Below, one piece after another: positions 1 to 355 of a stretch of DNA of 1,593 nt. Every line of letters starts with the position of its first letter. Position 1 is the stretch's first letter. The notes beneath the pieces were generated by a model that did no database searches, was not told where the DNA came from, and saw only the letters and a program-made list of their open reading frames with translations. The translations under genes were made by a program, and so were the position numbers. This stretch comes from Escherichia coli (GTDB taxonomy: Bacteria > Pseudomonadota > Gammaproteobacteria > Enterobacterales > Enterobacteriaceae): the NCBI RefSeq assembly GCF_024223415.1, contig NZ_CP100509.1. The stretch is one strand, 5' to 3'.

Positions 1-240
1 GTGGCTGATCCTGAATGGTTCCTCGAACTGACCCGCCAGACGCACAAGCGCCGCTTTGTGGCGACCGGCGGCGCACTCAAAGACGTGCTGAAACTCGATC
101 AGGAAACCGACGCCGACATGGTGATCGGGGATGATATTTCCGAGGGCGACGATGACGGTTCACGCATCGCGTTCGAGTGGAAAACCGAGGTCAGAAAGTA
201 CCGTCGCTCACCGACGAAAGATAAAACTGAATCAGGCTAG
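1..240 (+). CDS. rep: C-terminal 79 codons of the same Rep protein (stop TAG 238-240); 5' end lies outside the linear window, at the other end
   Basis: Translation VADPEWFLELTRQTHKRRFVATGGALKDVLKLDQETDADMVIGDDISEGDDDGSRIAFEWKTEVRKYRRS... aligns collinearly with the C-terminal region of pUB110 RepU as recalled (HRKRLISYGGLLKEI...DDDEKADEDGFSIIAMWNWERKNY). Codon phase is continuous with the codon ending at 1593. Confidence 0.85.
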   Translation: MADPEWFLELTRQTHKRRFVATGGALKDVLKLDQETDADMVIGDDISEGDDDGSRIAFEWKTEVRKYRRSPTKDKTESG

Positions 241-272
241 CGGGGTGTCGGGGCGAAGCCCTGACACCCCGC
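240..272. repeat. 15-bp GC-rich inverted repeat with GAA loop, immediately 3' of the rep stop codon; possible terminator stem or origin hairpin
   Basis: 240-254 GCGGGGTGTCGGGGC pairs with 258-272 GCCCTGACACCCCGC (14 of 15 Watson-Crick, one G-T). No T-tract follows on either strand. Confidence 0.5.
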
Positions 273-330
273 CAACGCCTCACGGCACGCGAAAAAATTC
301 CGCGTACCGCTCACCGTTCTTGAACTCGTC

Positions 331-355
331 AAACAGAAAATCGCGGGGCCCCGCG
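331..355 (-). terminator. Perfect 14-bp palindrome CGCGGGGCCCCGCG (342-355) followed on the minus strand by ATTTTCTGTTT; possible intrinsic terminator for minus-strand transcription, or a protein-binding palindrome
   Basis: The palindrome is exact. The T-rich run is immediately adjacent only when read on the minus strand (plus-strand 331-341 AAACAGAAAAT). Confidence 0.3.

Follow-up and report, generated by a model that had tools for sequence, protein, structure and literature searches.

What are the strong hairpin and the perfect palindrome that follow the replication gene of a very small Escherichia coli plasmid: signals that end transcription, a binding site for a protein, or parts of an origin of replication? 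We addressed this question for a 1593-bp stretch of E. coli DNA (contig NZ_CP100509.1 of RefSeq assembly GCF_024223415.1; the whole stretch analysed is called the window hereafter), in which an earlier note, made from the letters only, had singled out a 15-bp stem beginning at the end of the rep stop codon and a 14-bp palindrome further downstream. The reading that we favour, at a probability of roughly 75%, is that the two are unrelated features: the hairpin would be the scar of a deletion that removed a pair of inverted origins of transfer (oriT), and the palindrome would be part of a single-strand origin (sso) of the kind used by filamentous phages. Coordinates of the features are collected in Table 1, and L numbers are our handles for related loci.

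The window was compared by blastn with known plasmids. It is a complete circle, its two ends being adjacent in the Salmonella Enteritidis plasmid pB (NC_005002.1, 1983 bp, replicon type ColpVC): window 761–1593 corresponds to pB 1–833, and window 1–265 to pB 834–1098. Joined across this junction, 844–1593 and 1–240 yield an intact protein of 329 amino acids (aa) that is identical to pB Rep. Because this Rep belongs to Rep_1 (Pfam PF01446, E 7.5e-85 over residues 68–317), the plasmid is expected to replicate by the rolling-circle mechanism. Matches to the window occur in over 500 enterobacterial plasmids. ColpVC plasmids have been termed cryptic, their gene content being given as one rep and one hypothetical gene (PMC10074901). 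No tandem repeats were found in the window.

The window is pB minus 390 bp (pB 1099–1488), with an identity of 99.2–99.7% elsewhere. In pB, the affected region is an inverted repeat with arms at 1073–1156 and 1412–1495, each 84 nt long and 100% complementary, with 255 nt between them, and the outer ends of this repeat correspond to the two hairpin halves of the window. Thus window 240–265 equals pB 1073–1098, 26 nt at the outer end of the left arm, while window 266–300 equals pB 1489–1523 base for base, its first seven positions (266–272) being the outer 7 nt of the right arm (pB 1489–1495). The endpoints of the deletion form an 8-nt near-repeat, GCCCTGAC at pB 1091–1098 and GCCCCGAC at pB 1481–1488.

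The arm itself matches about 3400 plasmids, mostly large conjugative ones; its identity is 95% to an IncK2/Z plasmid and ~80% to one of the IncI-gamma group. Since in both the match starts ~12 nt from the nikA/mobA start codon and adjoins the gene for the NikB relaxase, the arm is, as judged by sequence, an oriT of the I-complex (R64 type), with the order ACGGGGTGTCGGGGCGAAGCCCTGAC-CAGATGG-(large inverted repeat)-CACATCCTG/TCCCG. Window 242–265 is identical at 24 of 24 positions to the oriT of the IncI-gamma plasmid pIFM3804, immediately upstream of nikA, and the G·T pair of the small repeat lies on the same strand as the nick motif. After the small repeat, I-complex plasmids carry CAGATGG or CAGGTGG, and not the ACCCCGC that forms the 3' flank of the window hairpin (266–272) and is the reverse complement of its left flank. 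As ACCCCGC can only come from a second, inverted copy of the oriT, a form with two inverted copies must have preceded the short one.

Of the components of such an oriT, the window keeps only the nikA-proximal 8-bp small inverted repeat. The large inverted repeat that binds NikA (pB 1105–1142 and 1426–1463) is located inside the deleted segment; the nick motif, which pB carries at cassette positions 73 (+) and 345 (−), was removed with it, and a search for YATCCTGY returned no match on either strand of the window. In comparison with the known I-complex oriTs (R64, ColIb-P9, IncK, IncB/O and IncZ; NikA/NikB, MOBP), the likeness comprises the nikA-proximal repeat and its flank in the window and, in pB, the full arm including the nick motif ACATCCTG/T. 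The differences are that the window retains 24 nt only, the NikA-binding repeat and nick region being gone, that its stem has been extended to 15 bp by joining onto the flank of the other, inverted copy, and that the parent plasmids have two inverted oriT copies and no relaxase gene. The hairpin is thereby assigned to an ordinary kind of element, apparently a truncated and non-functional I-complex oriT. A likeness to GGGTGTCGGGGCGCAGCC in pBR322 had made us consider the ColE1 bom/oriT as the source, for which the literature yielded mainly primers; this candidate was dropped, the database match being to the I-complex oriT by nikA/nikB.

In the sequence of events that we propose, an ancestral plasmid would have carried, after the rep stop, a cassette with an I-complex (R64/IncI1/IncK-type, MOBP) oriT at either end, the two in inverted orientation, each full copy consisting of the small 8-bp inverted repeat, the larger NikA-binding inverted repeat and the nick motif. 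In the single-stranded intermediates of rolling-circle replication the long palindrome would be extruded as a hairpin, which would favour slipped mispairing; the excision of the palindrome most likely took place in this way, between GCCCTGAC and GCCCCGAC at the hairpin's base. This route is read from the endpoints of the deletion. The residue would be the small 8-bp repeat plus 7 nt from each outer flank, together giving the 15-bp stem. In E. coli plasmids, the loss of a palindrome through slipped mispairing of short direct repeats located at its base is a classical event. The present case resembles it in that the 390-bp loss removes nearly the whole of a palindrome with 84-bp arms and ends in 8-nt, near-identical direct repeats, and differs from it in that the repeats are themselves the arms of the small hairpin and its inverted copy. 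Nothing points to relaxase-mediated recombination, because the deletion endpoints do not coincide with the nick sites.

With the nick site and the NikA site lost, the plasmid should no longer be mobilisable. Collapse of a palindromic oriT pair would therefore constitute a one-step route from a mobilisable to a non-mobilisable plasmid and, where mobility is predicted from sequence, similarity to just the outermost 24 nt of an oriT should not be taken for an oriT. The 8-bp repeat is said to contribute to the termination of R64 transfer, reportedly in work by Furuya and Komano that appeared in J Bacteriol in 2000. Functional orphan R64-like oriTs have been described on small plasmids, their essential core being the nick region and the NikA-binding repeat A (PMC4743918). 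E. coli plasmids of 1506–1552 bp (H208, H222 and H243–H246) likewise carry an R64-like oriT, 75–93% identical to the pB arm, and orphan I-complex oriTs seem to be common on the smallest plasmids.

Such a cassette is present in the close relatives whose sequence was read in its entirety. In five relatives (1983–2590 bp), the same repeat ends bound a variable cargo: directly after the rep stop they read GC(A/G)GGGTGTCGGGG(C/T)G(A/C)AGCCCTGACCAG.., followed by 390–1000 nt of variable cargo, and the inverted end of the cassette reads ..CCTGGTCAGG(G/A)CT(T/G)CGCCCCGACACCCCGC. A nick-like ATC(C/T)TGT occurs on both strands, facing inward, in four of the five, and as a single copy in L002; counted between the oriT ends, the cargo spans 255–1000 nt. 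The arms are long in pB (L001; 1073–1495), L003 and L007, while L002 and L006 have an inverted repeat of ~30 nt at an identity of at least 85%. The conserved inner segment has one orientation in L001, L002 and L006 and the opposite one in L003, L005 and L007; that both orientations exist suggests inversion between the arms.

A collapse of the mirror-image type, with the flipped tip GGGTGTCAGGGCTGCGCCCCGACACCC, is found in the plasmid L004 (NZ_CP126184.1), which has a different rep and shares the downstream 372 bp with the window at 95%. MOB-suite classifies the pB-type records as mobilizable and the collapsed L004 as non-mobilizable. As a separate observation, the block running from the hairpin through the spacer and the sso to the start of the nick region (window 243–614 against L004 1673–1858, continuing into 1–187) is 95% identical between the two plasmids and their rep genes are only ~67% identical over a short stretch, so that this non-coding origin block moves between replicons as a unit.

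As to the form of the hairpin, positions 240–254 (GCGGGGTGTCGGGGC) pair with 258–272 (GCCCTGACACCCCGC) through 14 Watson-Crick pairs and the pair G250·T262, leaving a GAA loop, and the first base, G240, is the final base of the rep stop TAG. Hairpins of equal length arose in none of 300 dinucleotide-preserving shuffles. The hairpin is the main contributor to the fold of the surrounding 89–96 nt, which has −29.1 kcal/mol as DNA (z −5.7) and −49.5 kcal/mol as RNA (96 nt, z −6.4), and the tip GCGAAGC is the very stable GNA mini-hairpin motif. The stem described in the earlier note is thus borne out, as is the view that it is not a canonical intrinsic terminator: it resembles a Rho-independent terminator in being a stable, G+C-rich stem-loop directly after a stop codon and differs from one in the absence of a U/T run immediately 3' of the stem, where the bases are CAACGCCTCACGG, and a terminator scan of the window did not flag it. 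A search of all Rfam families at E up to 10 gave only meaningless weak matches to eukaryotic and viral models on the hairpin, and no known RNA family.

These properties bear on an alternative in which the hairpin is a functional element at the 3' end of the rep mRNA, acting as a terminator of non-canonical type or as protection from 3' exonucleases, and has been retained for that reason. Its start on the last base of the stop codon and its high stability as RNA fit such a role, as does the fact that in all relatives the rep stop is immediately followed by the oriT hairpins, whereby rep transcripts always end in or cross structured RNA. On the other hand, the hairpin has no U-tract and escapes the scan, its sequence is wholly accounted for by descent from the oriT, the relatives have a different structure at this site (an 8-bp stem and then other hairpins), and the mirror hairpin of L004 sits 237 nt from the L004 rep stop. 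We consider selection for such a function unlikely; a present role, for instance in protecting the 3' end of the rep mRNA, is possible as an incidental property of the scar.

For the palindrome, a comparison was made with phages, among which window 300–520 matched only filamentous ones: the Erwinia inovirus PEar1 (blastn E 1e-4), in a non-coding stretch after gene IV, and, weakly, M13/f1 at 5655–5750. By pairwise local alignment, window 327–461 corresponds to M13 5625–5750 over ~130 nt, with the identical runs AAATCG, GGGTTCCGATTT, GTG, ACGGCAC, TCACG.AGTG, GGCCA and CCTG..AGACGGTTTTT. An nhmmer profile made solely from plasmid sequences retrieved both phages, M13 at 5624–5755 with E 2.9e-17 and PEar1 with E 4.2e-24, the E values being calculated for a nominal 2.3 Gb, the size of the whole phage collection. 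The M13 matches are to the + (viral) strand. The M13 intergenic region spans 5498–6005, with the nick by the gene II protein at 5780/5781 and the (−) origin just upstream of the (+) origin (PMC5405960), and minus-strand synthesis in M13 begins with an RNA primer made by the host sigma-70 RNA polymerase (PMC3411601). By analogy, we infer that window 324–466 may act as an sso that is primed by the host RNA polymerase.

The f1 minus origin consists of two hairpins, [B] and [C], to which the first and the second hairpin of the window element would correspond. If the window element behaved as in f1, RNA polymerase holoenzyme would recognise the folded DNA, coated with single-strand DNA-binding protein (SSB), and would make a short primer beside the second hairpin; DNA polymerase would then turn the single strand into duplex. 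The element, at ~324–466 on the + strand, would lie on the strand that is displaced in rolling-circle replication. As judged by its sequence, the sso to which the palindrome belongs would be an ordinary kind of element, a single-strand origin of the Ff-phage type. Like the Ff minus origin (f1/M13/fd), it has two adjacent hairpins on the strand that becomes single-stranded, immediately 5' of a nicking origin, and the first-stem hexamer, the CAC-GNA-GTG tip and the tail CCTG..GACGGTTTTT are common to both; M13 also has the layout of a lagging-strand origin immediately followed by the nicking origin. Unlike its phage counterpart, it resides in a Rep_1 plasmid with no packaging signal, and the apex of its first hairpin is longer than that of M13, comprising the palindrome and a CGCC-TCC-GGCG extension. 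The RNA polymerase-dependent ssoA-type origins of the Gram-positive plasmids pT181 and pMV158 are comparable as orientation-specific, folded, non-coding elements of the displaced strand with a single primer (PMC5714925), but no sequence relationship to them was detected, the window element being phage-related and enterobacterial. In the literature searched, we found no earlier description of a phage-type origin in such plasmids, nor of paired inverted oriTs.

The fold proposed for this element was examined in an alignment of 14 homologues, namely 12 plasmid sequences including the window, M13 and PEar1. Across the whole fold 92.8% of cells are paired, as opposed to 32–48% when the partners are slid by 1–3 columns, and 12 pairs are changed on both sides, a count reached in none of 500 shuffles. 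The first hairpin has 96.9% of its cells paired and 4 double-changed pairs; for the second hairpin the values are 90.5% and 6, with the compensatory arms GGTGGTTGG/CCAACCACC, GGTGGGAGG/CCTCCCACC, GGTGGATGG/CCATCCACC and GGGTGATGG/CCATCGCCC. Folding of the element as DNA (−38.5 kcal/mol, z −4.4) returns the same structure. Since the non-canonical cells comprise 32 G·T as against 2 A·C, the + strand is the strand that folds.

Within this structure the palindrome lies at the apex of the first hairpin, and by DNA folding its 3' half pairs better with 361–368 than with its own 5' half, two arrangements that covariation does not cleanly separate. Both the minimum-energy and the centroid DNA fold contain the extended apical stem and not the self-paired palindrome. 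In the apical stem, alignment columns 36/49 (window G353·T365) covary, with G·T in 10 sequences, C-G in 3 and T-A in 1, and CGCC/GGCG is replaced by CTGG/CCAG in L012–L015. A self-paired palindrome as the functional fold was rejected, its covariation being no better than that of the extended stem and the energy model not choosing it. In relatives, the palindrome takes the form CGCGGGGTCCCGCG, CGCGGGGGCCCGCG or CGTGGGGTCCCGCT; M13, PEar1, L005 and L017 lack it as such. By sequence it thus appears to be a local variant of an apex with a G-run and a C-run, as opposed to a conserved dyad. The palindrome itself is probably not a functional unit, its 3' half serving to extend the first hairpin via 361–368. 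The suggestion in the earlier note that either element could belong to a single-strand origin accordingly holds for the palindrome, which falls within the homology to the M13/f1 minus origin, and fails for the hairpin, which we trace to the deleted inverted pair of R64-type oriTs.

Two smaller parts of the element are of interest for priming. The hexamer at the base of the first hairpin is TTGACG in the window, TTGACA in the Salmonella virulence plasmid pSLT and TTTACG in M13 and PEar1, and could conceivably be a contact for RNA polymerase. In the single-stranded tail, CCTG..A..C is invariant in the alignment, the M13 equivalent being CCTGATAGACGGTTTTT; by analogy with f1, the tail is likely to be the template on which the RNA primer starts. 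Next to the element, TCACAAAATCGG (468–479) is a perfect 12-nt complement of CCGATTTTGTGA (371–382, in the 3' arm of the first hairpin); this alternative pairing could enclose the second hairpin and is kept only in the closer relatives pB, L002, L004 and L005, with at most one mismatch in pB.

The candidate nick region of the double-strand origin (dso) is found ~110 nt 3' of the sso, and in every Rep_1 relative in which both were seen they lie on the same strand with the sso upstream. The sequence GATCCTTGTATTTATACTTAAGGGATAAC is identical in L013 and L014, differs only at its last base in L017 and is partly kept in L004. CTTGTATTTATACTTAAGGGATAAC of the window is essentially invariant in the relatives, and it has TAAGGG(A)TAACT in common with pC194, the type plasmid of the family, which carries CTTGATAATAAGGGTAACT on the rep-sense strand, upstream of rep. 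An exact copy of CTTGATA, to which the nick motif of Rep_1 plasmids (pC194/pUB110/pKYM) is related, does not occur in the window. By analogy with pC194, the + strand would be the one that is nicked and displaced, and hence the strand of the sso fold. With this assignment, the functional map would be complete for a plasmid that ranks among the smallest in nature, rep, nicking origin and lagging-strand origin being accommodated within 1.6 kb.

Table 1. Positions of the features discussed, in window coordinates (+, strand as given;., no strand assigned).
Feature	Positions	Strand	Basis or remark
rep, C-terminal 79 codons and TAG stop at 238–240	1–240	+	Junction adjacency in pB
15-bp hairpin with GAA loop	240–272	+	Putative collapse scar of an inverted oriT pair
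Outermost nikA-proximal small inverted repeat of an I-complex oriT, GTCGGGGC GAA GCCCTGAC, with GGGGT flank	242–265	+	
Deletion junction, retained 8-mer GCCCTGAC	258–265	+	Overlap of blastn segments and exact string comparison
Small imperfect hairpin GGCACGCGAAAAAATTCCGCGTACC	283–309	+	DNA fold; in the spacer module of other small plasmids
Proposed sso	324–466	+	Homologous to filamentous-phage minus-strand origin; DNA fold z −4.4
First sso hairpin (putative f1 [B] counterpart)	326–389	+	Stem 326–343/372–389, 18 nt, 89% complementary
14-nt perfect palindrome CGCGGGGCCCCGCG	342–355	.	Apex of first sso hairpin
Apical stem-loop CCCGCGCC-TCC-GGCGTGGG	350–368	+	Pairs 350–357/361–368; uses the 3' half of the palindrome
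TTGACG, −35-like hexamer, in duplex at the base of the first hairpin	383–388	+	Conserved
Second sso hairpin (putative f1 [C] counterpart), invariant tip CAC-GNA-GTG	414–446	+	Pairs 414–428/432–446
Conserved single-stranded tail TGTAAGACGGTTTTTTGTT	447–465	+	3' of second hairpin
dso nick region GATCCTTGTATTTATACTTAAGGGATAAC (candidate)	577–605	+	Kept in relatives with diverged rep
rep, N-terminal 250 codons	844–1593	+	Crosses the circle junction into 1–240

Other small plasmids, too, have homologues of the sso. Among the IncFII virulence plasmids of Salmonella, an M13-like homologue with two hairpins is located ~620–770 nt past the end of repA, at 3973–4122 in the Salmonella Typhimurium virulence plasmid NC_016855.1 (L009) and at 1473–1622 in L016, and it contains a near-identical copy of the second M13 hairpin (GGGGTGATGGTTCACGTAGTGGGCCATCGCCCTG); single-strand initiation in this theta replicon may take place there. 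A phage-type origin module common to Rep_1 plasmids with differing rep genes, IncFII virulence plasmids and inoviruses would indicate that origin modules move between phages and plasmids.

The IncFII position bears on a second alternative, namely that 324–466 is a single-strand initiation site of the primase (G4-like) or primosome (phiX174-like) type and not of the RNA polymerase type. The primase-dependent G site of R1/R100 lies roughly where the pSLT homologue does, past the end of the IncFII repA, and E. coli plasmids use several kinds of single-strand initiation signal. It was this position that prompted us to consider a G4-type primase site, which was rejected: the phage homologues are inoviruses only, with no match to a G4-like or phiX174-like microvirus at E up to 10. 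In addition, the homology spans both hairpins of the minus origin of M13, a phage primed by RNA polymerase (PMC3411601). A primase or primosome site is thus improbable, and a phage-type sso primed by RNA polymerase remains the preferred assignment for 324–466.

Several points weigh against our joint reading of scar and sso. The function of the sso is proposed from homology to M13 and from structure, and the self-paired and the extended-stem forms of the apex are not cleanly told apart by covariation; M13 has neither the palindrome nor the extended apex, and the apex (palindrome plus extension) may have a plasmid-specific role. On the side of the scar, the 1593-bp short form and its junction were found in none of PLSDB, the complete E. 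coli genomes, the JGI metagenome contigs and the GTDB representative genomes. A third alternative builds on this last point and takes the 390-bp deletion and the 15-bp hairpin to be a sequencing or assembly artefact of a pB-type plasmid with its 84-bp perfect inverted repeat. A short form that is unique among all collections searched would be expected of an artefact, and long perfect palindromes do trouble polymerases and assemblers. However, the junction is placed at an 8-nt near-repeat within the small hairpin and not at the repeat boundaries; the junction k-mers are absent from pB, and an assembler should be unable to invent them without reads; the window differs from pB at other positions as well (see the identities above); a mirror-type collapse has occurred independently in L004, a finished plasmid; and the parts needed for replication, rep, dso and sso, are all intact. 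We judge an artefact to be decidedly unlikely.

The remaining point against a simple scar is a single metagenome match to the mirror hairpin pattern, on contig Ga0302291_10000664 (L022; 10 kb, 70% GC). Positions 7209–7240 of this contig are the exact reverse complement, over 32 nt and mismatch included, of window 240–271. The copy is in frame within a 1331-aa open reading frame (ORF) of the alpha-amylase/glycogen-debranching type, in the linker between GDE_N and GDE_C, and the contig has no further similarity to the window. By our own estimate from a simple composition model, such a copy would arise by chance with a probability of ~1e-3 to 1e-5. Its presence in an unrelated organism may leave room for the hairpin to be more than a passive scar. 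Taken further, the inverted-oriT cassette could be a mobile unit that is gained, flipped and lost by hairpin-templated or relaxase-assisted events, the 33-nt hairpin being its footprint and L022 a second footprint; its host range would then extend far beyond the enterobacteria. We regard this as a long shot and retain the deletion scar as the explanation of the hairpin.

For the palindrome, the earlier note had suggested a terminator of minus-strand transcripts or a site for a dimeric protein on duplex DNA. The perfect 14-bp dyad and its T-rich run on the minus strand are real: on that strand CGCGGGGCCCCGCG is followed by ATTTTCTGTT, which the scan flagged as terminator-like and which resembles a Rho-independent terminator in its T-run. 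Yet perfect palindromes of at least 14 nt were seen in 20 of 300 shuffles (7%), and the two terminator-like sites in the window compare with 1.3 expected; the palindrome alone is therefore not beyond chance, and any significance comes from its context. This context speaks for the hairpin of the sso. The T-run is only the minus-strand counterpart of AAAATCG, the conserved 5' arm of the first stem, whose partner CGATTTT lies at 372–378, and the DNA fold engages the 3' half of the palindrome in the apical stem. In the comparison with related plasmids the palindrome is not kept perfect, its dyad symmetry being broken while the pairing of the hairpin is preserved. There is no credible minus-strand gene or promoter upstream for such a terminator to serve, and a scan of the whole window for sigma-70-like promoters found none, which gives no support to a minus-strand transcript ending at the palindrome. 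Either suggestion is thus highly improbable.

Finally, pB is annotated with a 78-aa hypothetical protein, WP_000263637.1, at 1422–1658, of which window 265–435 would encode the C-terminal part, the palindrome then simply encoding Ala-Gly-Pro-Arg-Ala. RefSeq annotates this ORF in pB and several relatives, but a coding role is scarcely credible and the ColpVC 'hypothetical protein' is, by sequence, most likely not a gene, because in the window the start and the ~20 first codons are lost with no in-frame start of useful length left (in pB the start is itself inside the right oriT arm), L005 has an 8-nt frame-shifting deletion, Pfam and NCBIfam give no matches and the substitutions are compensatory for base pairing in the DNA, the homologous DNA in M13 being a non-coding intergenic region.

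Two stretches flanking the sso and nick region were also noted. The spacer module CCAACGCCTCACGG..CGCGAAAAAATTCCGCG..CACCG at window 273–321 recurs at 2241–2289 of pJJ1886_2 (L008, Col156), just after the mob genes, as well as in several plasmids of 3.1–3.9 kb. Between the nick region and rep, window 612–756 is strongly structured as DNA (z −4.5), and includes a long hairpin at 695–751 that ends in GACCACCTGTAG, a repeat of the ACCACCTGTA that follows the second sso hairpin (441–450 and 747–756). In pKYM, the (+) origin is reported to have an HU-bound enhancer downstream of its core (PMC4439123), and by analogy the structured stretch of the window may be the equivalent of this enhancer or may serve in the control of rep.

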